Virus record (IMG/VR): IMGVR_UViG_3300035698_015907
Source of the DNA: a virus
Strand: one strand, 5' to 3'
DNA length: 64,000 nucleotides
Shown here: positions 32,111 through 63,175 of the stretch, piece after piece
Layout: each line of letters starts with the position of its first letter
Position numbering within the stretch: the stretch's first letter is position 1
The notes under the pieces: model-generated
What the model was told of the DNA's origin: nothing
The model's input: only the letters and a program-made list of their open reading frames with translations
The model's database searches: none
Made by a program: the position numbers and the translations under genes

Positions 32111-33064
32111 TTAATCTTCCTTCAATAGACCTTTAAAATAATCTAATGTTGAATCTCCATCATCACTAGTACTAGTACTAGTATCAAACGGGGCATCAGC
32201 AGCAACAAGCTTCTTCTCTTCCTTCTTAGGTTCGGGCTTCGGCTTAGCAGGTGCTTCATCTTCATCAGATGACACATCAGTCATCCTCATATCAAGAACA
32301 TTATATAGCTTCTTCTTAAGTTCAGCATATGGCTTGAACAAAGCGTATCCATTAACATCCTTGCCTTCTGGATTGATGAATTGCTTAAGAGACTGGATCT
32401 TTTCATAGACCTTCTCTATTTCATCATCTTCTCCATCTAGTAAAGATGACTGCTCATCGAATGACGAATTATCATAATTAAGATAACCTTCAACCTTTCT
32501 GATCTTGAGCTTAAAGTTTGCTCCTTCCCAGAAGTCATAAGGTACGATAGGCTTCTCTTCAAACTCTACAGGCGGATTCATTGCTTCCTTGATCTTGTTA
32601 TAGATCTTGGTTCCAATCCTATAAAGGAATACCTGGCCTTCATTTTGAGGCTGGGCTGGGTCCTTTACTACATAGATGTTTGTAAGATAATGTAGACGCC
32701 TCTTCTGTCGGCGAACTGTATCCTTATCTTCTTCTCTACCAGAATTCCATAGCTTCTGATTTAGTTCAGAAACAGGGTCTTCCTTTCCAATTGATGTAAG
32801 AGAATTTTCGATATACCACTTTCCAGAAGGACCCTGGAAGCCGTGGTCATATACAGATACAAAAGGTACAACTAGATCATCTTCTTCCTTAGAAGGCAGA
32901 AAACGAATTACAGCATAGCCATTTCCGGCTTTGTCTGTCTGAGGACGCCAAAATCTGGTATCTTCTACTCTTTTTCTAGATGATGGATCAAGCTTTGCAA
33001 CTTCATCAGCAAGCTTTTCAGCGGAGGTATTTTTACGGCGAGATTTATAGTTAGCGAACGACAT
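32111..33064 (-). CDS. gp32: single-stranded DNA-binding protein gp32
   Basis: DTRFW..DKAGNGYAVIRFLP, HGFQGPSGKWYIENSLT, FWEGANFKLKIRKV, acidic tail. Confidence 0.97.
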   Translation of the reverse strand: MSFANYKSRRKNTSAEKLADEVAKLDPSSRKRVEDTRFWRPQTDKAGNGYAVIRFLPSKEEDDLVVPFVSVYDHGFQGPSGKWYIENSLTSIGKEDPVSELNQKLWNSGREEDKDTVRRQKRRLHYLTNIYVVKDPAQPQNEGQVFLYRIGTKIYNKIKEAMNPPVEFEEKPIVPYDFWEGANFKLKIRKVEGYLNYDNSSFDEQSSLLDGEDDEIEKVYEKIQSLKQFINPEGKDVNGYALFKPYAELKKKLYNVLDMRMTDVSSDEDEAPAKPKPEPKKEEKKLVAADAPFDTSTSTSDDGDSTLDYFKGLLKED

Positions 33065-33747: not shown

Positions 33748-33981
33748 TTATATAGGAAGTCTCCTAGTTTTAGGTAAAAGATTCATATCTTCAGCTTCAA
33801 CTTGTAATTTACTTTTTAGAGGTTCGGATTTTTTTATAATAGCAGCGGCAGTTTCTATCTCAATACCATTCCTTTCACAATATTCTACTATAACATCAAA
33901 ATATTCAGCGCCAGTATCTTCTACTTTGCGTTCTATTGCTCTTAACATTTCAATGGAATCTAGCATTCCATTAACTTTCAT
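33748..33981 (-). CDS. gp33: late transcription coactivator gp33
   Basis: IERKV..YFDVIVEYCE.NGIE.E..LKSKLQVEA..NLLPKT. Confidence 0.9.
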   Translation of the reverse strand: MKVNGMLDSIEMLRAIERKVEDTGAEYFDVIVEYCERNGIEIETAAAIIKKSEPLKSKLQVEAEDMNLLPKTRRLPI

Positions 33982-34661
33982 AAATGATTAATCTCCTCAA
34001 ATTCCTTTCTTATTTCTAAAAACTTTCCTATATAATCTCGGGATTTCTTTTTGAAAACCTTAGCTATAGGATCACCATCTCTCATTATTATAACAACTAT
34101 ATCTTCAAGTGTAATACCAAACATTTCATATGCCATAAAAGCATATGCAGCACCTTGCATGAAATATGATTCAATATCAGTTTCATACTTATCTCTAGCA
34201 CTAGTTTTAAAATCGACAATAGATTGGACGCCATCAAACTCTGCTATTAAATCAGCAGTGCCCGCAGATTTTAATCTACGAGAAAACATTTGTATTTCTG
34301 TGTGAAAAATATTATCTACGGAAATATCTAATACATTTTTAATAGGTATAAAATCCACTAAAATGAATGGATTCACATCTACACTATTAAGTCTATTATT
34401 AAGATAATCCTCACATAACTCATGCACCGCTGTGCCTCTCAGAGAGGCTCGCTGTGAGACTAGGTTAGCCTCCTCCTCACCAACACGAGCCCTCCACTCG
34501 CTTATGTGTGTGTCACTGAGCATAGACAGGACAGAGGTGACTGACGGAAAAGCGTCCCCGCCAGGCACTCTGTATAGTCTGTGTAGTTCCGAATCGATGC
34601 GCTCAATTGGAACGTACTTATCTTCTGGAAAAGATAAGTGAGTAAATGATTTGTGTTGCAT
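33978..34661 (-). CDS. PD-(D/E)XK (Cas4-like) exonuclease
   Basis: PSVTSVL..W..RVG..RGT.VH..CE, AGTADLIAEF..IVDFKTS, YFMQ..AYA. Confidence 0.85.
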   Translation of the reverse strand: MQHKSFTHLSFPEDKYVPIERIDSELHRLYRVPGGDAFPSVTSVLSMLSDTHISEWRARVGEEEANLVSQRASLRGTAVHELCEDYLNNRLNSVDVNPFILVDFIPIKNVLDISVDNIFHTEIQMFSRRLKSAGTADLIAEFDGVQSIVDFKTSARDKYETDIESYFMQGAAYAFMAYEMFGITLEDIVVIIMRDGDPIAKVFKKKSRDYIGKFLEIRKEFEEINHL

Positions 34662-38932: not shown

Positions 38933-39427
38933 TTAACTCCTATTTAATAGGTGTACCGATTTTGTGATGTGCTTTCTATGTATTTTGCCACCTATGAATG
39001 AATTATAAAAATCATCTCTTATTAAAGCGTCCCTTACAATTTGTTCTCTCATTTCAAGATAATTCATATCGCCTTTAGAAGAGCACAAGTAAAGTATTTT
39101 TCTCGAAAAGCATTCTACTCCAAATTTTTCAATATCATTTTTCAGTTCAGCCGAACTTCCATAATATTCTTTCCAATCTGAAGAAATCCTAACTCTCTTA
39201 GTACGCTTTCTAGATTTGTTTTTAGGAAGCTTTTTTATCGCCCATAGGCCTTTTTGACCGATGTACTTTTTGCCATATGCGGCAGGGCTAAGGCATTCAA
39301 TTATATACACAAAACCAGCAAACTTTTGCAGTTCGCTATCTGGTAGGGTCAATTTAACCCCACTCTCAACAAGCCACGGATTGTTGTATTCTTGATCTGT
39401 TATTGATATTTGGTTTATGTCATCCAT
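38933..39427 (-). CDS. GIY-YIG nuclease, endonuclease II (DenA)-like
   Basis: GFVYII..KKYIGQK, SDWKEYYGSS, F.RKIL.LC..KG..NY.E, FYNSFI. Confidence 0.8.
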   Translation of the reverse strand: MDDINQISITDQEYNNPWLVESGVKLTLPDSELQKFAGFVYIIECLSPAAYGKKYIGQKGLWAIKKLPKNKSRKRTKRVRISSDWKEYYGSSAELKNDIEKFGVECFSRKILYLCSSKGDMNYLEMREQIVRDALIRDDFYNSFIGGKIHRKHITKSVHLLNRS

Positions 39428-47594: not shown

Positions 47595-48646
47595 TTTTTA
47601 TGATTCTTTCCTGTGAATCTTTGATTAACGATCTTTAATGCTCTCATCGATCCAGAAACTACATCAAAAAACTTAAGAACAAACCCTTCAATATCTCTTT
47701 CATTTATTACTACGTCAGAACAATTTTTCAGCTGCTTAACCAACTCTATAACATTGTTATAGTGCTGCTCATTTTCTGTTATATCTCTTAGAATGTTATC
47801 ATATTTTTTATTAATATTCTCGATGGCTTTTTCTCTAACCATCTTTGATACTTTTTTCTGTTCTTTCTGAATTAGAAAATTTTTGAATGCATCTATGTCC
47901 ATAGAATTAAAATAGTATGTTCTGAAAGACGAATTCAAGAATTCATTTAGTTCTTTTTTGTAACCAATTTTTTCTATTGATTTCGCAGATTTCACATTCT
48001 TAAGTAGAGATTTTACTGATAAATTACATTCCATTAATCTGAGTGATGTGATATAACTATCACTGATGTATGGCGTGTTTTTAACATAATGGATGGATTT
48101 ACTATTTCTATGTGGGTCGCTTTCGCATGGTACAAATTTGCCATCGACACATTTAGATGTTATAGTGATAGCTAATTTCTTGTTTGGATCGTAGGTAGAA
48201 CCCAAATCATATGTTATAACATTCGGTGTTATGTAACATGATAAACCGCTGTCATCATATTCCATCCATCCAATTTGATATAACACATTTTCACCACCTA
48301 ATATTTCTTCAGCATAATCTAATGCTATACTAAGAATTTTTAGCTGGTTTTTCTTGTCTGAATAAGCTTTTTCAATATCAGATTTATTAGTGAACATAGG
48401 AGATTTAACTCCTTTATATCCTACAGCAGGCAAGCTATTATGGATACCAACTTTTATAGACATAGCATCGTCTATTTTTTCTGAAATTTCACATCTAAAA
48501 GAATTAGACCCCATAGCTTTAAGTGACATTTCATCAAAGCACACTGATGCTAATTCTAATGATTCAATACACTTTTCAGCATTTTCATCAAGTTGCCACA
48601 CGTGATCAATATGTTCTATGACCGGAGGCTTTATATCAATACTCAT
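47576..48646 (-). CDS. RNA-ligase-like nucleotidyltransferase (DUF6267-like)
   Basis: HIDH, motif I-like SEKIDD, TPNVITY, motif IV EGFVLK, motif V LKIVN..F..N. Confidence 0.6.
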   Translation of the reverse strand: MSIDIKPPVIEHIDHVWQLDENAEKCIESLELASVCFDEMSLKAMGSNSFRCEISEKIDDAMSIKVGIHNSLPAVGYKGVKSPMFTNKSDIEKAYSDKKNQLKILSIALDYAEEILGGENVLYQIGWMEYDDSGLSCYITPNVITYDLGSTYDPNKKLAITITSKCVDGKFVPCESDPHRNSKSIHYVKNTPYISDSYITSLRLMECNLSVKSLLKNVKSAKSIEKIGYKKELNEFLNSSFRTYYFNSMDIDAFKNFLIQKEQKKVSKMVREKAIENINKKYDNILRDITENEQHYNNVIELVKQLKNCSDVVINERDIEGFVLKFFDVVSGSMRALKIVNQRFTGKNHKKWHQTP

Positions 48647-50229
48647 TATATAATCCTAATCTTGAGAACATTTCTATTTCCATCATAATCAACATGTCGT
48701 AACACCGTTTTAATTTTTAATTCGGCGTTCAAATCTTTAAGTATTTCAAGATTTTCAACTCTATCATCCCACATCTGTACTTCATCATATGATCCATTTA
48801 CAACTAAATCTTTTATAACACGTTTCTTATTTTCTTCGGTAGTTTCATTATTCAATTTTATATTGCCAGATCTATGAATATGTATTTTGTTTGCATCGAT
48901 ATTATATTCATTCAATTTCTTTAAGAATATATCATGATCAGTGAAATCTGTTCTAGCTGTTACTATAATAACATCTTTTCCGTCATTTGATAATTTTAGC
49001 ATTCTATCAATCATTTTTTGTATAGGTAATGCATTACCAAAGAAGTGTTCAGAGTCTTTAAATGTTTCATAAGAAAATGAATGATCATTCATAAGTTCAT
49101 GATCATGATATTCTTTTGTAGATAATTTATGTACAACAGCACCAGATTTATCTATTACATGAACTGATGGTTCAGTACCTTCTTTATACCAGAATAATGT
49201 ATCATCCATATCAAAAATATAGAGCACACGCTTTTTTCTTTTTCGTTCATTAAGCATTTGTACTTTAAAATCACCACGCCAATTAGTAACAGGTCCAGAA
49301 TTTGTTCGTATTGATAAAGTAGCAACTATTTCTTCTACTTGAAATTTCTTATTGAATGCTAGAAAATTGATATTAATAGAATTACTGTTATTGTGAACTC
49401 TAAAATTTTCATATTTCTCAGAAGCTTCTTTAGTCTTCCGTTCAATGTTATACACATCAAACAAAGCACCAGCTGGATGCACTCTTACATGCGTTCTATA
49501 ATGTGGAAAAACAGTATCATGACACGAAGCTTCAATTATGATATTTTTGATAAAATCAGAGCTGCTATTTTCTAATGAGTTTCTAATAGCTTGAGCTATA
49601 TTGCGTCGATATGCTAAACTAGATTGTTCAGCTTTTTTCGCAATATCAGTGCCTTTCAGACTTTTATATCTGTCATGATTTTCTTTTGCTGTGCCATTAA
49701 AACCGAGCTGTTTTATGTATTTGTCATGTTGTTTTCTAAAAGAATTTAGATAATCAATTTTTAATTTTTCTTCTAAAGTCGAACAACCAGAATTTCTTAA
49801 TGTAGCATGTTTTGATGTACCGTACTTAGCTGAAATACCAATAAAGTTACCGGTAGAAATAGTCTGTATCATTAAATCAGCATCAGAATTTATATCTTTG
49901 ATACCAGTAAGTTTTTCATGCTCACCTATAGATCCTAAGCTGTCATCAAGTGATGTCCATGTAACGCTCTGAACATCAGTAGTGTTACATAGATGGCCAT
50001 CAACATGCAGCGCAGATTTAATATGTTCTGATAAAGAATATGAATGCTCAGATATTAAATCACAAGCTTCAATTCCTAGTGTATTAACACATACATTATA
50101 AATTTCAGATGGAGAAGATTCTTCAGATCTAAAATGATTAGGCCACGTATTTCCAGATAAAGCCCATGCTAACATTATTTCATGAGCTTTACCGCGAGCA
50201 TCATGTTTGCTCCCGTTAATTCTTGTCAC
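48646..50229 (-). CDS. fusion: restriction-like PD-(D/E)XK domain + HAD phosphatase (RNA-repair type)
   Basis: N: GKAHE..DADLMI..GISAK; C: YIFDMDDTLF, IVTAR, K, WDDRVENL. Confidence 0.65.
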   Translation of the reverse strand: MTRINGSKHDARGKAHEIMLAWALSGNTWPNHFRSEESSPSEIYNVCVNTLGIEACDLISEHSYSLSEHIKSALHVDGHLCNTTDVQSVTWTSLDDSLGSIGEHEKLTGIKDINSDADLMIQTISTGNFIGISAKYGTSKHATLRNSGCSTLEEKLKIDYLNSFRKQHDKYIKQLGFNGTAKENHDRYKSLKGTDIAKKAEQSSLAYRRNIAQAIRNSLENSSSDFIKNIIIEASCHDTVFPHYRTHVRVHPAGALFDVYNIERKTKEASEKYENFRVHNNSNSININFLAFNKKFQVEEIVATLSIRTNSGPVTNWRGDFKVQMLNERKRKKRVLYIFDMDDTLFWYKEGTEPSVHVIDKSGAVVHKLSTKEYHDHELMNDHSFSYETFKDSEHFFGNALPIQKMIDRMLKLSNDGKDVIIVTARTDFTDHDIFLKKLNEYNIDANKIHIHRSGNIKLNNETTEENKKRVIKDLVVNGSYDEVQMWDDRVENLEILKDLNAELKIKTVLRHVDYDGNRNVLKIRII

Positions 50230-51785: not shown

Positions 51786-52379
51786 TCATTCCTCATATGT
51801 TTCTAAACAATTTATCAACTGGGACAATCTAGGCTCTGCTACACCTGTGCCATAAATCCAAGTTCCTAACAAAGTAGAATTTCTTATACCATATGATCCC
51901 AATTCATATCCAAAATATGTAATATCACATCCTTCATCAGTTTTGTCAAATCTTATACCTTTATCATGAGGTACAATCTTTTTGAAAAATTCTGATGCAT
52001 CATCCATCATCTCATCTAATAATCTAGACAGATAATCTTCCTCAGCATTAGAATCTATTATTATAAGTTCATTTTTGATGAAATATTTAGTGTGCAATTC
52101 ATCAAATTGATTATCTCTGATGCAAGGTGTTACCGTTTGATACTTACCATCTGGTAGATAACCTTTTGCAAGCATATACAAAAACGATTGTTCACCACTT
52201 CCAACGAAAGTTTTCTTTTTACCTCTGTGTTCAACATGATAATTTGAAGCAAAATCGGGTTTAGTTATATTGTTAATATCTTCTGTAACAAGCCATGGCG
52301 CTTCAATTCTAGTATAACCACAACTTTCATAATGCGTTATTGATATATCAATAATGCCATAATCTATAGTTCTATTCAT
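51786..52379 (-). CDS. stand-alone class II aaRS-like catalytic core (197 aa)
   Basis: Motif 1-like GYTRIEAPW, GSGEQSFL, motif 2 TPCIRD..H..YF.K.E, ELGSYGIR, motif 3 YGTGVAEPRL; no anticodon domain. Confidence 0.7.
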   Translation of the reverse strand: MNRTIDYGIIDISITHYESCGYTRIEAPWLVTEDINNITKPDFASNYHVEHRGKKKTFVGSGEQSFLYMLAKGYLPDGKYQTVTPCIRDNQFDELHTKYFIKNELIIIDSNAEEDYLSRLLDEMMDDASEFFKKIVPHDKGIRFDKTDEGCDITYFGYELGSYGIRNSTLLGTWIYGTGVAEPRLSQLINCLETYEE

Positions 52380-53388
52380 GAAATAATTTCACCATTTTAT
52401 CTATTATCATGTAATGATCAAATGCTAAAGCATTTTTCATATTAGTTCGAACATAATCTAAATCTATCCAACCAACCCAAGCAGCATCATCTTTTGCTTT
52501 AATTTCTATGTCATAATTATCATCTAGTATGTGACCATAAGCTATGGATATAATAATAGCTCGTGGGTCACGGTCCTGGTCGCCTGAGACCACCACATGC
52601 TGACCTAAGCTTAAGCCGTGAGTGACCTCATGCAGCTTTATGTGGGTCTCCTCATAAAGCTCTCTTATAGCTCCCTCTAGTGGCGTCTCGCCAAGCTCAA
52701 AAAATCCACCAGGCAGAGCAAACCCTCCAATATAAGGATTCTTCTTTCTTTTTATGAGCAATATTTTGTTGTTTTGAATTATGACATTATCACATGTTAT
52801 GTGTGGTCTAATCCCGTGAGAAGTTATATAATAACTGCTGGAGTTATACATATCAACAACGTTTTTAATTTCGGGATTTTTAAAATTATCTAAAACAATG
52901 TCATGGTGTCTGTTAGACACCCATGCTAGATCAAGAATGCTACTATTTTTACGATCTACATTCAAATTTTTATAATAACATTCTCTTATAACAGTAGAAT
53001 TAACTGAATTAATTTTTTCAGCTAATACTACATTCCAATATGGTTGAAATGAATTAATATAAGAATATTCATCTAAATTTTTAACATGAACATAAAGAGA
53101 ATTATCTCCAGGTCCAATTAATTTCATAATATTTCTAGACCACAGTTCAGTATTACCTACATCATACATATGATGTACTAGAACTCTATTTTTATATTGC
53201 TCCGGTATAGCGCTATCAATGATTTGTAAGCGTTCTCTGAATGTGAACGGGTCTCTAGCAGTTCTCATCTGATTCGGAGAACACACTATTAAATGAAGAT
53301 AATCACAATCTGCTAAAGCTTTTTCAACAACTGACATGTGCCCAGAATGAAAAGGCTGAAATCTACCTATTACTACAGAGTTTTTCAT
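52372..53388 (-). CDS. bifunctional NMN adenylyltransferase / ADP-ribose Nudix hydrolase (NadM-Nudix)
   Basis: IGRFQPFHSGH, RDPFT..ER, NSTVIR; Nudix box GGFFELGETPLEGAIRELYEET; RDPR; AFDH. Confidence 0.9.
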   Translation of the reverse strand: MKNSVVIGRFQPFHSGHMSVVEKALADCDYLHLIVCSPNQMRTARDPFTFRERLQIIDSAIPEQYKNRVLVHHMYDVGNTELWSRNIMKLIGPGDNSLYVHVKNLDEYSYINSFQPYWNVVLAEKINSVNSTVIRECYYKNLNVDRKNSSILDLAWVSNRHHDIVLDNFKNPEIKNVVDMYNSSSYYITSHGIRPHITCDNVIIQNNKILLIKRKKNPYIGGFALPGGFFELGETPLEGAIRELYEETHIKLHEVTHGLSLGQHVVVSGDQDRDPRAIIISIAYGHILDDNYDIEIKAKDDAAWVGWIDLDYVRTNMKNALAFDHYMIIDKMVKLFHE

Positions 53389-54614
53389 TATAGAACTCTC
53401 AGAAGAATTGTATTTTCATTAATTCTACCATTAGGCTTATATCCACTCCCATTGAGAGTGTCCATATATTTCTTAAGTGCTACTTTACCAGATAACATAA
53501 TGCCATCTAATCTTTCTTTAGTTTGACGTCCAATCTTTTTTGATATGGATTTTTCTTCATCATAGTTAAGAATTGTAGTTCCCTTAACACTAAAACCTTG
53601 ATCATTTCTTGCTCTATAGAGAGTTAGTAATGTGTACTTTGAATTGTAAATCCAAAGTTCATTAGCACCAAGAATTTTGATTGGGCTTATGGATTCCATT
53701 TTAGTATCAGGATCTTCTTTCTGATACTTTAGACGAGAAATAAGTTTTTCTGCAGATACTGGTTTTTTTCTTCTAGCTTTTCTGACTTTGGGTTCATCAA
53801 TATCATTAGAAGACTTTTTAGTTTGCTTAGATTTCTTAGTATCGGAAAGAAACGCTCTGCAATCAAAAAGAATTTTTTCAGCTAAAGTTCTGCTCTTTTT
53901 AAGTTGACCAAAACTTTTTCTCTCAATCTCATCTAACTCAGATGTATCAGAGTTTAATAGTCTATCACAATCTTTAATAAATTCTTCTATCTCAACCATC
54001 ATGTCTTTTACATGTTCGGGCTGAACTTCATCATCTTTCAGAATTTTGATAATATCAATAGCATTATTCATCCTCTTTTTTGGAAGAGGATCAAAAGCAT
54101 TGAATGCTTCATTCAATATTTCAAGATAACGATCAAATTTTAATTCTTGCGGGGATCTTTTAAGTGAAGGTAGTCGAAATGGCTTTTTTGTTTTGAAAGA
54201 TTCTTCGACATCACGAAATTCTTGATCTACACTTTTTATCTTTGTGAGTTGACTTTCAAAAAGATTAATGTAATAATCTTCATCTTCGAAAGTCTCTTCT
54301 ATAAGAAGCATTCTAGCAATCCAGCATGCTGAACTGCCAAAGCCAAAAATACGAGACTCATGTATTCTTTTAATATTATCAACATCTTCAAATCTATTAA
54401 TAGATGTTAGATAATCAGTTAAAAAGTTTTTTGCTTTCTTGTAATCCACTACATTAAGTGTATACCAATTGAAAGCTGTTGAAACTTCTGTATGGGACAT
54501 TGGATGATCATATGTGATCTCAGTCCCATAAGCTTTTTTATTCAAAGCAGCGAGGGCAGATTTTCCCATCCGTCCTGCTGATACTTTGGCAGGTTTCTTA
54601 TCTATCCTAGCCAA
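53388..54614 (-). CDS. conserved T4-like hypothetical protein
   Basis: AFNWY N-terminus; SISPIKILGA..WIYN..SVKGTTI..NGRINENTILL C-terminus. Confidence 0.7.
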   Translation of the reverse strand: MARIDKKPAKVSAGRMGKSALAALNKKAYGTEITYDHPMSHTEVSTAFNWYTLNVVDYKKAKNFLTDYLTSINRFEDVDNIKRIHESRIFGFGSSACWIARMLLIEETFEDEDYYINLFESQLTKIKSVDQEFRDVEESFKTKKPFRLPSLKRSPQELKFDRYLEILNEAFNAFDPLPKKRMNNAIDIIKILKDDEVQPEHVKDMMVEIEEFIKDCDRLLNSDTSELDEIERKSFGQLKKSRTLAEKILFDCRAFLSDTKKSKQTKKSSNDIDEPKVRKARRKKPVSAEKLISRLKYQKEDPDTKMESISPIKILGANELWIYNSKYTLLTLYRARNDQGFSVKGTTILNYDEEKSISKKIGRQTKERLDGIMLSGKVALKKYMDTLNGSGYKPNGRINENTILLRVL

Positions 54615-57004: not shown

Positions 57005-57451
57005 TTATGTATTAGCAGCAGGCTTCTTTACAACAGGCTTCTTAGCAACCTTCTTTACAACCGGAGTTTTAACTGAAGGCTTTTTAGCGGCTGGCTTCTT
57101 TACTGGTGTTTTCCCAACAGAAGCTTTTTTGACTCTTTTCTTTGGAGCTGGCTTAGGTGTTTCCACAACATTAGAAACAACTTCTGCTTCAGTAGATTTT
57201 TCTTTTACTACCACCACTTCAAGTGTCGCAGAGCCTGAAGAATTCAAAGATTCTTCATTGTCAGTCGCAGCATCTATAATAAAAGTTTGTGACTTGAATT
57301 CTAGTTCATCGCCAGGTACCATTAACGAATGCATTAATGCATTCGCAGTTTCTTTACTTTCGCGGTCTTTGCGTCCAAAATAATAAACAGCCCAGCAGAC
57401 TAATACAAATCCACCAACAAATAACAAGCTCCACATAAGTTCAATGTCCAT
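57005..57451 (-). CDS. membrane-anchored protein with H1-like Lys/Pro/Ala/Val-rich tail
   Basis: N-terminal TM helix; acidic linker; KKPAAKKP/KTPVVKK repeats. Confidence 0.7.
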   Translation of the reverse strand: MDIELMWSLLFVGGFVLVCWAVYYFGRKDRESKETANALMHSLMVPGDELEFKSQTFIIDAATDNEESLNSSGSATLEVVVVKEKSTEAEVVSNVVETPKPAPKKRVKKASVGKTPVKKPAAKKPSVKTPVVKKVAKKPVVKKPAANT

Positions 57452-59856: not shown

Positions 59857-60427
59857 TTATCAATTTCTCTATTTTTTCTTTAACATAAGCAGGGTTAGCT
59901 TTGCCTCGAGCTTCTTTCATAACTTGGCCAACTAGCCAATTATTTACTTTGTCTGAACCATCTAATTTTTCAGAATTAGCTTCAATGATATTAATTATCG
60001 TTGTATCAATATCACTATTTTTCACTGGAACATATTTAGGATCGGATAAAATTTTGGAGAGCTCTTCACCAAACAAATATCGCCTAATTACATCTTTGAA
60101 ATGTCTCTTATCAAGAACTTCAAATTCAAACATCATTCTACATAGAACATTCATTAATTCTATGTTAACTAGATATTCTAAACCGACTTCACCAAATTCA
60201 TTAGATATTGCATTGCCATCATTATTAATAAGCTTTGCTATCTTTGAAGAATAGTCAAAGTTTTTAGTAAATGGTTCACTAAATTTAATTGCTTCTGGTA
60301 TCCAAGCATCTGTCAGTCTAACATAACCTGTAGTGAATTCTATATTTCCAAATTCATCAAGTCTGTTGCATGTACCATATTCTATATCATCTACAATTTT
60401 AACATTTTCATATGAATATTTAGACAC
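59843..60427 (-). CDS. GatB/YqeY-domain protein
   Basis: C-terminal IIEAN..K..NWLVGQVMKEARGKANP..V..I, the GatB tRNA-binding tail. Confidence 0.75.
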   Translation of the reverse strand: MSKYSYENVKIVDDIEYGTCNRLDEFGNIEFTTGYVRLTDAWIPEAIKFSEPFTKNFDYSSKIAKLINNDGNAISNEFGEVGLEYLVNIELMNVLCRMMFEFEVLDKRHFKDVIRRYLFGEELSKILSDPKYVPVKNSDIDTTIINIIEANSEKLDGSDKVNNWLVGQVMKEARGKANPAYVKEKIEKLINDRN

Positions 60428-61646
60428 AAGTCTTCCCTATTCCATCAAGCAGTTCTTCACGATTTAATACAAATCTAGAATTTCCCCACTCGGTGCGAAG
60501 CTCTTTAAGCTTAATACCAACATCAGGACCAGGTGGAATTCCAAGTTCAATTAAATCTTTACCAGAGACTGGAAATTTTGGCTTTGGCATTGCCATATAT
60601 TCATCAAGAAATCTTGCAAGCTTATGATCACCAATATAAACAGAATAATGATATAGCTTTCCAGGATCAAGTTCACCTCGTGCTATTCTAGACATAACAT
60701 ATTCTGGGCCATCAACCCAGTAAATTGCATGTCCTTTAGCTCCATCTTCTACAATATGATTCTTAATTATGAATTTCATAATATCATAAGAATTATTGTC
60801 GAACTTAAGTCTCTTTCTCAAATTTATCAGATTATCTAACGAGTTGAGCATTGCTACTATGTAATACAACGGGCTCTTTGCTCGATCATTTATAGCAAGT
60901 TCTTCTATTTTAGCAATGCAGTCAGGTGATAGATACAAACTAGCATCTATAGAATACAGTATATTATGATATTCCATAATCTTTAGCACTGTTAATGCAG
61001 ATGTGCCAGAACAAATCTTAATAAGTTCAGACCAAATTCTTTCACCAGAGATTTCTGAAAGATTGCTACTTAATTTTGTGATTATTTCTAATGTTATAGG
61101 ATCAATGACTGGATTATTAAGCTTTGACGCGAAACGAAAATAACGAAGTATTCTAAGATAATCTTCTTTGATTCTAGAATCAGCATAACCTACAAATTTA
61201 ATGACTTCGTTATTTAGATCATTCAAGCCATCAAAATAATCGTATAATACACCTTCTTTATCCATATACATAGCATTGAATGTGAAATCTCTGCGTGATG
61301 CATCAACTTCCCAATCAGTAGTAAATTCTATTTCAGCATGACGGCCATCAGTAATAATATCTTTACGAAGAGATGTTATTTCAACGGCTTGCTTATTGAT
61401 AATAGCTGTAATTGTACCGTGCTTCAGACCGGTTGGAATTACATTATATCCTAATGCAGCTAAAGAACTGCATATATCAGTCGGCTTAACATCTGTAGCA
61501 ATATCAATATCATCAGGTTCAATGCCCTGAAGCATATCACGTACACAACCTCCAACAAGTCGTGCACTGCCACTTTTTATACTAGCAGCCTTATCAACCT
61601 TTCGTAGTATTGATAATGTGTTATGATCTATTTCAAAAGAATTCAT
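60420..61646 (-). CDS. cca: class II tRNA nucleotidyltransferase (CCA-adding enzyme)
   Basis: LVGGCVRD, DDIDIAT, RRDFTFNAM, EDYLRILRYFRF, SGERI..E, C-terminal VSGKDLIELGIPPGP. Confidence 0.9.
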   Translation of the reverse strand: MNSFEIDHNTLSILRKVDKAASIKSGSARLVGGCVRDMLQGIEPDDIDIATDVKPTDICSSLAALGYNVIPTGLKHGTITAIINKQAVEITSLRKDIITDGRHAEIEFTTDWEVDASRRDFTFNAMYMDKEGVLYDYFDGLNDLNNEVIKFVGYADSRIKEDYLRILRYFRFASKLNNPVIDPITLEIITKLSSNLSEISGERIWSELIKICSGTSALTVLKIMEYHNILYSIDASLYLSPDCIAKIEELAINDRAKSPLYYIVAMLNSLDNLINLRKRLKFDNNSYDIMKFIIKNHIVEDGAKGHAIYWVDGPEYVMSRIARGELDPGKLYHYSVYIGDHKLARFLDEYMAMPKPKFPVSGKDLIELGIPPGPDVGIKLKELRTEWGNSRFVLNREELLDGIGKTCV

Positions 61647-61708
61647 TTAATGTAACCACATTTTGTTCAGTTTTATATTTGTTATTTAAGCTCTCTGAAA
61701 AATAAACA

Positions 61709-63175
61709 TTATTTCTTTTTCCACGGCATATCTACTACGCCAGCCATAATAGATCCTCTTGGCATAATACGATCTTCAACAGTAGCAAGACCATATTTAT
61801 TTATTTGACTCTGGACTTGTTCAGCATTTTTATATGATGACGGAAGCTCAGATATATCAATATCACCAGTGTAAAACCGAATATCAAGACCTTCGGTTTC
61901 CCTTTTCAATACTGCATCTTTAACTTCTTTTGGAACAGTCCTATTTTTATTCCACTGATCTCTCACGCCAAATTCATCTACAATTCTTCTAGTATGTTCA
62001 GTTCTTGACAAGTTTCTTCCTGCACCATGGGGTGCAAAACCAAGATTCTTATCTGAATTAGCATGGCTAGTAAGAAGAATTGGCTGAGCCATATTCAAAG
62101 GAATGATAGTAATTCCATTATCATCTAATGAATACCCATCATATGATGGCGTAGCTCCTTTAGCATGGAAGAAATTATCTCCACGTTTGAACACGAAGTT
62201 GTGTTCATTCCAAAACCAGTCTTCCATGGAATTACCAAGTCTTTTTGCAATAGTTTCGTGTATAGCAAAATGATTCATTTTAGTCCACAAACGAACAGTC
62301 TGAAGAGCTATCCAATAATCATGACCAATTTTGCTGTCATAATCTAGCCACGCCTGATGCTCTGGAATTCTTGGTGCTACAACAGCAGTATGCTTCTTTG
62401 CAGCTGACATTCCATGCTTATATAACAAACCACCAAGAGACCTAGAACCATGATGAGTAACTAGACACATCTGTCCTGTGGATTCTAATTCACCGACATA
62501 CAAAAAGTGATTTCCATCACCTTGAGTCATAAAGTGGTTCTCGGCAGCATCAACAAACTTCTTATTATCAAGAAAACTATTTCCTTCGAATTTAGAAATA
62601 AGTTCCTTTAGTTTGTGGTTTCTGCGCACTTCTGATTTAGATCTTTTGCCTAAACCAAAGTGAGTAACTTTCATTGCTTCATCAAGAACTCTTTTTACAT
62701 CATCATTGCGCTTGAAAATAGTTACTGCCATCGAGCAGCAAATATCAGCAGAATGCATTCCTGGATGAATGGTACCTTTAGTTTCTATTACGCCCCCAAC
62801 TGGAATAGTTCCAAGCTGATTTCCAGCCGGCATTGAATCTGGCATAACCGCAGCTCTTTCCACGGTCGGTAGTCTCATAATTGCATCCATGTGTTGGATT
62901 ACATTTTTGAGATTCTCTCTTTCATCATCAGATTCTGGATCTAAAAATATCTCGAACGGGCGAGAATTTGTACGAAGAGATAAAAGGCTTTCTTCATACA
63001 CTTTCTGTTTTTCTAGAACATCATCATAGAATTTTAAAGCAGCAAATTTAATTTCATCTAATGAACTGCCTTTATTTTCCATTAGATTTACAACATTTAA
63101 CAAATCACGAAAGTGTTTACCTTCCGGGATTCCCCACTCTTTTAATTTTTCGCCATTCATAGTATCATCCGCCAC
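61709..63175 (-). CDS. rtcB: RtcB family RNA ligase
   Basis: MPD..P..IPVG, SADICCS, GDGNHF, HHGSR, HNFV, KGATP, PHGAGR, E.P.SYK. Confidence 0.92.
   Translation of the reverse strand: MADDTMNGEKLKEWGIPEGKHFRDLLNVVNLMENKGSSLDEIKFAALKFYDDVLEKQKVYEESLLSLRTNSRPFEIFLDPESDDERENLKNVIQHMDAIMRLPTVERAAVMPDSMPAGNQLGTIPVGGVIETKGTIHPGMHSADICCSMAVTIFKRNDDVKRVLDEAMKVTHFGLGKRSKSEVRRNHKLKELISKFEGNSFLDNKKFVDAAENHFMTQGDGNHFLYVGELESTGQMCLVTHHGSRSLGGLLYKHGMSAAKKHTAVVAPRIPEHQAWLDYDSKIGHDYWIALQTVRLWTKMNHFAIHETIAKRLGNSMEDWFWNEHNFVFKRGDNFFHAKGATPSYDGYSLDDNGITIIPLNMAQPILLTSHANSDKNLGFAPHGAGRNLSRTEHTRRIVDEFGVRDQWNKNRTVPKEVKDAVLKRETEGLDIRFYTGDIDISELPSSYKNAEQVQSQINKYGLATVEDRIMPRGSIMAGVVDMPWKKK

Follow-up and report, generated by a model that had tools for sequence, protein, structure and literature searches.

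Genomic setting of the two genes

The window analysed here (the whole 64-kb stretch of DNA, with a G+C content of 34.5%) derives from a T4-like phage, and its genes include those encoding gp32, gp59, primase, ribonucleotide reductase, PhoH, RNase H and baseplate proteins. Its DNA is present in salt-lake metagenomes, and no protein above ~45% identity was found in cultured phages for the genes searched. A YjiS-like small gene suggests an alphaproteobacterial host. Two genes of the window, encoding a NadM-type nucleotidyltransferase-Nudix fusion and a Cas4-like exonuclease, each contain a stretch of ~150 bp with unusual synonymous codon choice, referred to below as island 1 and island 2 (Table 1).

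Table 1. Coordinates of the two genes, the islands and associated features in the window
Feature	Position	Strand	Description	Basis
NadM-type nucleotidyltransferase-Nudix fusion (gene with island 1)	52372..53388	-	338 aa	Pfam NUDIX + CTP_transf_like; phrog_395
Island 1, core	52548..52705	.	without GWW/WWC on both strands; codons 229-280 of NadM-Nudix	motif counts, synonymous nulls
Island 1 with graded edges	52525..52745	.	4 motifs vs ~28 expected; codons 222-288	counts; AAT/ATT and CAA/TTG low too
Nudix box	52639..52707	-	codons 228-250, nearly all within island 1	translation; alignments to syntenic orthologs
Inverted repeat	52634..52661 (arms 52634-52642/52653-52661)	.	9 bp, 10-nt loop	repeat scan
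Cas4-like (PD-(D/E)XK) exonuclease (gene with island 2)	33978..34661	-	227 aa	phrog_298
Island 2, core	34410..34547	.	without GAA/GAT/GTA/AAA/AAT and complements; codons 39-84; 56% G+C	counts, nulls
Island 2 with graded edges	34405..34590	.	6 motifs vs ~28 expected; codons 27-85	counts

The Cas4-like exonuclease gene lies immediately downstream of phoH, and the phoH-exonuclease junction is empty in the window. Island 2 starts ~90-115 bases into this gene and covers the most conserved 46 residues of the protein. Upstream of NadM-Nudix, between it and an HNH gene, lies a gene for a 408-aa conserved protein of phrog_11903 (53388-54614, minus strand), for which there was no usable Atlas match and the single-sequence structure model was poor. 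A stand-alone class II tRNA-synthetase-like core adjoins NadM-Nudix (51786-52379), and genes for tRNA nucleotidyltransferase and RtcB are found at 60420-63175.

Several other nuclease genes are present in the window. A 527-aa fusion (48646-50229, minus strand) combines a restriction-enzyme-fold domain at the N-terminus with a C-terminal HAD phosphatase; the N-terminal domain is HaeIII-like by Atlas features with a very high score, and its best PDB fold match is HinP1I (E 2.8e-4, model pLDDT 88). This ORF is conserved and syntenic across a phage clade of 30-62% G+C and is possibly a host-DNA-degrading nuclease. The ORF at 38933-39427 (minus strand) encodes a SegE-like single-domain GIY-YIG protein, for which the PHROG label 'NAD synthetase' looks wrong; it is a core rather than a mobile gene, because it is found in ~30 T4-like loci.

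GWW/WWC trinucleotides are purged from two conserved coding stretches

The earlier note had reported from a hand count that part of NadM-Nudix lacks GWW/WWC trinucleotides, and our recount agrees with it. No GAA, GAT, GTA, GTT, TTC, ATC, TAC or AAC starts from 52547 to 52704, leaving a 157-bp gap; the 20 GA/TC dinucleotides are all GAS/STC (12 GAG/CTC and 8 GAC/GTC), and the neighbouring line 52441-52500 contains the 11 motifs counted before. The G+C content of island 1 is 50.6%, and the 54% estimated by hand was too high. The protein is intact as claimed, and so is the Nudix box, except for a His at the penultimate Gly position, which is variable in orthologs too. The inverted repeat pointed out within the island does exist but has no special status: it is unremarkable because the window has 17 perfect repeats of >=9 bp with loops <=20, this one included. 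An assembly chimera is ruled out: three public assemblies, of which one may be the source sample, carry the same DNA for this gene; in run X3, an 853-bp contig spans island 1 with zero differences, and contigs from other runs span both islands unchanged.

The mean GWW/WWC density in the window is 0.158 per base, with a mean spacing of ~6. When the genome was subjected to 200 synonymous shuffles, the longest motif-free gap had a mean of 50.7 and a maximum of 68, compared with the 157 observed, so the codon-shuffled null foreseen by the earlier note does not generate such a run. The second and third longest gaps in the window (65 and 47) are adjacent, at 34417-34547, and both belong to island 2. 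With the protein fixed and genome codon usage, the probability that island 1 is motif-free is 10^-15.2, and it is still 10^-9.4 with codon usage tilted to the island's own G+C, the GWW/WWC motif having been chosen after the fact from ~500 patterns. In other phage genes, the same scan gave background maxima of ~10^-7 to 10^-9 when repeats, wrong-frame ORFs and foreign genes were excluded. For codons 39-84 of island 2, the synonymous null gave P = 10^-12.0 for the absence of RAW/WTY and 10^-10.0 for that of GAW/WTC. No other 40-codon windows of the 64 kb are as unusual as the two islands, which are also among the three strongest GC3 patches of 1,837 genes from ~160 loci; the other GC3 patches have 12-21 GWW/WWC per 120 bases, the two islands 0 and 2. 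A near-complete purge is found in two of the 76 genes of the window.

Some other candidates were rejected. An AT-free run of 158 bp at 57011-57169 had a high naive score, which is accounted for by protein composition (log10 P -0.3); it encodes the histone-like tail, rich in Lys, Pro, Val and Ala, of a protein of 148 aa whose N-terminus is hydrophobic. At other loci, runs free of TA, AT or CG were at background level under the synonymous null. Stronger scores elsewhere were repeat artefacts, namely a repeat protein in L046 (-13.5) and wrong-frame repeat ORFs in L084 (-10.2) and G003 (-22.2), or GC artefacts, namely a whole GC-rich gene in L117 (-11) and a GC-rich gene block in L189. The latter (L189:5358-6804) contains genes at 50-60% G+C within a phage locus of 31% G+C and is probably a recent acquisition. 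The gp32 gene has an AAA/TTT-free stretch (32189-32341, 10^-8.3) with AAG-rich codons, which is probably the codon bias of a highly expressed gene, since a relative (L020) also uses AAG there.

According to the codon counts in both islands, the rule concerns words in the DNA. G/C-ending codons are used at 25 of 26 Glu/Asp/Val positions, at one of ten Phe/Tyr/Asn/Ile positions and at 24 of 60 others (Fisher p = 6e-7); for island 1, the codon choice described earlier was recovered, with 14/14 G/C-ending for Glu/Asp/Val and 0/8 for Phe/Tyr/Ile. The motif probability of 10^-9.4 even under GC matching confirms the earlier view that this is not mere GC enrichment. The selection acts on the DNA, on both strands, at synonymous sites. 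With GWW already missing from the coding strand, the lack of WWC contributes an extra 10^-2.6 in island 1 and 10^-4.0 to 10^-4.6 in island 2. In the word ranking over both islands, GAA is absent or nearly so, GAT, GTA and GTT are strongly depleted, and AAT/ATT are low too; GAA/TTC occurs 0 and 1 times in the widened islands, i.e. once against ~19 expected in both together, and the core of island 2 keeps three GTT/AAC. A graded two-stranded motif has been removed by selection, through synonymous change, from two ~150-bp stretches that lie on conserved protein motifs. Island 2 ranks in the top 1% of its protein's windows by conservation, and island 1 in the top 20%. A fully motif-free encoding is possible for only 22 of 649 same-size protein windows in the phage and for 8 of 70 Nudix homologs; the protein of island 1 qualifies, which gives a weak hint of protein-level accommodation.

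No positive motif common to both islands was found, and the best island-island alignment is at chance level (58% of shuffles). Neither island has a promoter excess, a terminator, the late-promoter sequence TATAAATA or an Rfam family, and there is no overlapping ORF across either of them. RNA folding is only mildly better than in shuffles (z -2.2 and -1.7). The T4 primase recognises GTT/GCT. A primase-recognition-site model was rejected by reasoning, since GTT is tolerated whereas GAA is forbidden. The variable region of a diversity-generating retroelement was also rejected, as the rule is two-stranded and synonymous and no variants are listed in the islands among the contigs compared.

The islands in relatives and other phage DNA

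The relatives compared do not share the islands. The segment of the exonuclease corresponding to island 2 has 12-28 motifs in 129 homologs, compared with 3 here, and the two closest homologs (54% and 48% identity) are also unpurged. No purge was found in the NadM-Nudix orthologs of L275, L277 and G003. The absence from these relatives, none of them close, indicates that the feature is lineage-specific. In another syntenic relative, a stand-alone Nudix gene (L276:6609-7082) replaces NadM-Nudix, and its last 40 codons show a partial GWW/WWC dip (7 vs 15, z -4.0) in a locus uneven in G+C.

In total, more than 2 Mb of phage DNA was compared, syntenic relatives included, and the two islands are unique in this sample: no comparable island was found in 1.64 Mb of 143 loci, the T4 genome, 28 further loci and 383 kb of three large contigs. 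Pattern searches for recoded motifs in viral contigs yielded 78 loci, none of them purged. In the open-access literature, to which the search was confined (subscription papers being outside its scope), no account was found of purges of this kind in phage genes, that are local, near-complete and directed at a trinucleotide on both strands.

Milder codon anomalies do occur at conserved motifs elsewhere. The exonuclease gene of L105 (4250-4912) and of L022/L023 has unusual-codon, TA-poor patches (z ~-5) over the codons of island 2, with neither a GWW purge nor a recognised endonuclease next door. The conserved motif of gp46 carries a GC3-rich patch in L167:14101-15813, L123:5640-7361 and T4 gene 46 near 34493 (z 6.5, 4.2 and 4.0-4.2); no GWW purge was found in these patches of three T4-like phages including T4.

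Candidate selecting agents

We tentatively propose, as the best explanation, that the islands are scars of escape from an endonuclease that is anchored to particular sites and cuts at a short degenerate motif, the candidate being a rival phage's homing endonuclease or a NixI-like nickase. All that is proposed about the selecting agent, namely a sequence-directed endonuclease or nickase from a competitor, we infer from the pattern that it would have left. A co-infecting T4-like phage may encode it as a free-standing homing endonuclease, or it may be a NixI-like effector of a satellite or host. Such an enzyme would be anchored to the two conserved regions and would cut any reachable short degenerate GWW/RAW word; as the residues there could hardly be changed, escape from repeated attack would proceed by purging every cuttable word in the zone. 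The rise in G+C would be a by-product, and the islands would have no positive function of their own.

The two-stranded rule fits an agent acting on double-stranded DNA, and the position on conserved coding motifs fits escape, as parasites tend to aim there. Previous studies describe a tendency of homing endonucleases and introns to be directed at conserved sequence, with the cut sites of free-standing enzymes lying hundreds to thousands of bases away from the genes that encode them (PMC2988022); T4 MobE, for instance, makes its nick in the 5' part of nrdB, which lies downstream (PMC2790892). The motif of the nickase NixI is GWAAWC^TT; the enzyme has two dominant sites and its cuts cluster within 100 bp, the motif being required for cutting without sufficing for it (PMC9410903). 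The motif of SegB is RAWTSGAAC (PMC13096335). The motifs of these two phage-cutting nucleases have the same cores as the purged words, a resemblance that could be coincidence because the words are short and AT-rich. Window-wide, GATATC occurs 2 times against 23-25 expected and GGATCC 0 times against ~6, which argues that the phage DNA is cuttable at GAT/ATC. This avoidance suggests EcoRV- and BamHI-like restriction in the host.

A possible source of such an enzyme was found in a distant T4-like contig, G005, where a 229-aa NUMOD3-bearing ORF (G005:33549-34238, equal to L320:13549-14238, minus strand) lies between phoH and the Cas4-like exonuclease; it is a putative homing endonuclease, a name given by us, because Pfam did not call a catalytic domain. 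G005 also carries several further free-standing endonuclease-like genes, and its own exonuclease is unpurged, with 19 motifs. A few other ORFs of this kind lie within 1.4 kb of the exonuclease in related phages, and none was seen beside a NadM-Nudix ortholog. No mobile nuclease gene adjoins either island in the window, where the neighbouring nucleases are conserved core genes; the SegE-like GIY-YIG gene, the HNH gene and the restriction-fold/HAD fusion have conserved counterparts in relatives that show no island in the DNA sampled. An intron or intein landing site was rejected, since 0 of 178 exonuclease homologs are split or longer than 300 aa and the NadM-Nudix orthologs of L275 and L277 are uninterrupted.

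Compared with known systems, the islands resemble the situation of the free-standing T4 Seg and Mob enzymes (SegE-uvsW, MobE-nrdB and SegB) in that conserved genes are targeted, cut sites are distant and motifs are degenerate (PMC2988022, PMC2790892, PMC13096335), and in that a NUMOD3 ORF occupies the phoH-exonuclease junction of another T4-like contig. Unlike in those systems, no endonuclease gene lies beside the islands here, and the T4 target genes have no 150-bp motif purge. T4, with its 15 homing endonucleases, has no motif-free island; it has mild GC3 patches (z ~3.7-4.0) at 5' uvsW, 3' nrdA and nrdB exon 2, which lie near segE, mobE and the nrdB intron. NixI, which is encoded by the Vibrio cholerae satellite PLE and acts on phage ICP1, likewise has a degenerate motif that does not suffice for cutting, two dominant cut regions in a large phage genome and several cuts within 100 bp, but its motif is 8 bp rather than a trinucleotide, no purged escape alleles are described in the passages of its report that were consulted (PMC9410903), and no satellite was recognised here. 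Genome-wide restriction-site avoidance in phages is similar as a synonymous removal of a nuclease word, as for GATATC and GGATCC here, whereas the word of the islands has three bases and is purged almost fully, only inside two ~150-bp zones. The scanning window of I-TevI is ~21 bp (PMC2988022), the sole measured one found in the literature, and the 150-bp zone far exceeds it. Moreover, for the same motif to be purged from two unrelated genes, either a single enzyme must have two hot spots or two enzymes must share a cut preference.

According to another explanation, which we consider rather improbable, GWW/WWC would be modified or coated genome-wide, and the islands would be two windows of plain DNA kept free for replication, recombination or packaging proteins. 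The earlier note had proposed such a cis-element written into synonymous sites. Its core, selection at the DNA level on both strands, held up, but a hypermodification-free window or an entry site for an origin or packaging is not supported by the evidence. A single enzyme would account for a two-stranded, graded rule common to two loci, and motif-specific phage modifications are known, such as dPreQ0 at GA by DpdA (PMC10484667) and carboxymethyl-C at GC by CmoX (PMC12783734). In addition, a glycosyltransferase and an FkbM methyltransferase are encoded in the window, T4 origins are situated within or next to genes, and the scan covered 64 kb of the genome. However, the glycosyltransferase and FkbM genes are syntenic in relatives that have no island, the islands have no common binding motif, and GWW/WWC is neutral rather than enriched window-wide (z = 0.9). 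Nor does this explanation predict the position on conserved catalytic motifs, into which a new cis-element could be written only with the greatest difficulty. The avoidance of GATATC and GGATCC is as expected for DNA unprotected at GAT/ATC. A GA-modified phage was found to be EcoRV-resistant and still BamHI-sensitive (PMC10484667), so the avoidance of GGATCC is uninformative here and only that of GATATC counts, and the latter may be ancestral. Among the window ORFs scanned, no DpdA/Que, hydroxymethylase, C5-methyltransferase/TET, Mom-like or CmoX gene was recognised. The DpdA/dPreQ0 and CmoX systems are thus alike in their short di- or trinucleotide rules on both strands and unlike in that none of their genes is recognised in the window and GATATC is here avoided, not protected; no report of motif-free islands in phages with these systems was found in the literature searched. 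A protective GWW modification is therefore doubtful.

The trinucleotide rule on two strands also has the appearance of a protospacer-adjacent motif. TTC is the PAM of type I-C systems, and GAA/TTC is the most completely absent word. The RNA-guided nuclease of a host CRISPR system (TTC/WWC-type PAM, local primed adaptation) or a TnpB-like enzyme carried by a phage would have hit the conserved stretches repeatedly, and PAM or TAM motifs would then have been removed from them. This seems quite improbable to us, as ~10,000 GWW/WWC sites are left in the rest of the window and the sharp 150-bp limits are unaccounted for.

It is very unlikely that the phage protects two unshieldable sites from a nuclease of its own, such as the HinP1I/HaeIII-fold domain of the ORF at 48646-50229. 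Its restriction-enzyme fold and its distance of 2.3 kb from island 1 speak for it, but at least five relatives in whose sampled DNA no island occurs carry the ORF in conserved form and syntenic position. An enzyme cutting at GWW would call for protection of the whole genome, which the avoidance of restriction sites speaks against.

It is equally hard to credit that the islands were acquired by recombination at conserved motifs from a GC-rich phage of the same clade and have since decayed in part to A/T. This reading needed testing because GC-rich syntenic clade members exist (L275 and L277, at 60-62% G+C); crossover with distant kin is easiest at conserved motifs, and the G+C of the islands is slightly above the motif-rule prediction (p 0.003-0.045 by island and rule). 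However, L275 and L277 use TTC/TAC/AAC at >90%, whereas the Phe, Tyr and Ile codons of island 1 are never G/C-ending and its Glu, Asp and Val codons always are. The best donor-recipient mixture reached a log10 likelihood of -50.9, compared with -38.5 to -40.5 for a motif-free recipient model, so that the fit of a GC-rich donor patch is poorer by ~1e10 than that of a motif purge. Under donor-recipient mixtures, P for island 1 never exceeded 10^-6.8, and none of 175 candidate codon usages exceeded 10^-6.5. DNA identity to the orthologs is just 51-53%, and blastn finds no donor; the earlier statement that the patch is unlike a GC-rich donor agrees with this, as neither codon usage nor nucleotide sequence matches one.

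Finally, a signal at the level of RNA or translation (mRNA structure, codon-specific pausing or escape from an endoribonuclease) is the least credible. The in-frame Glu/Asp/Val codons do give most of the statistical signal, and the folding z-scores point the same way, but in both islands the motif is also missing, independently, from the reverse strand (combined 10^-6.6 or lower), with neither an Rfam match nor an overlapping ORF.

Returning to escape from a competitor's endonuclease, if this were true, sequence alone would reveal which zone an unseen nuclease targets and which words it prefers to cut, and the implied reach of ~150 bp would be several times the I-TevI value. More generally, the islands could reflect an undescribed zone-and-motif system, in which a nuclease, base modifier or coating protein reading GWW/WWC is confined to, or excluded from, sharp ~150-bp zones, the strongest form being functional modification-free entry sites in coding sequence; we regard this as possible but on the unlikely side. 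The reach and specificity of such an enzyme would be readable directly from synonymous codon choice. Modification-free sites would illustrate by what means functional sites are left accessible within the modified DNA of a phage. Thus, the escape scars, if true, would represent a novel form of phage-nuclease conflict, and the cis-sites, if true, a new kind of element.
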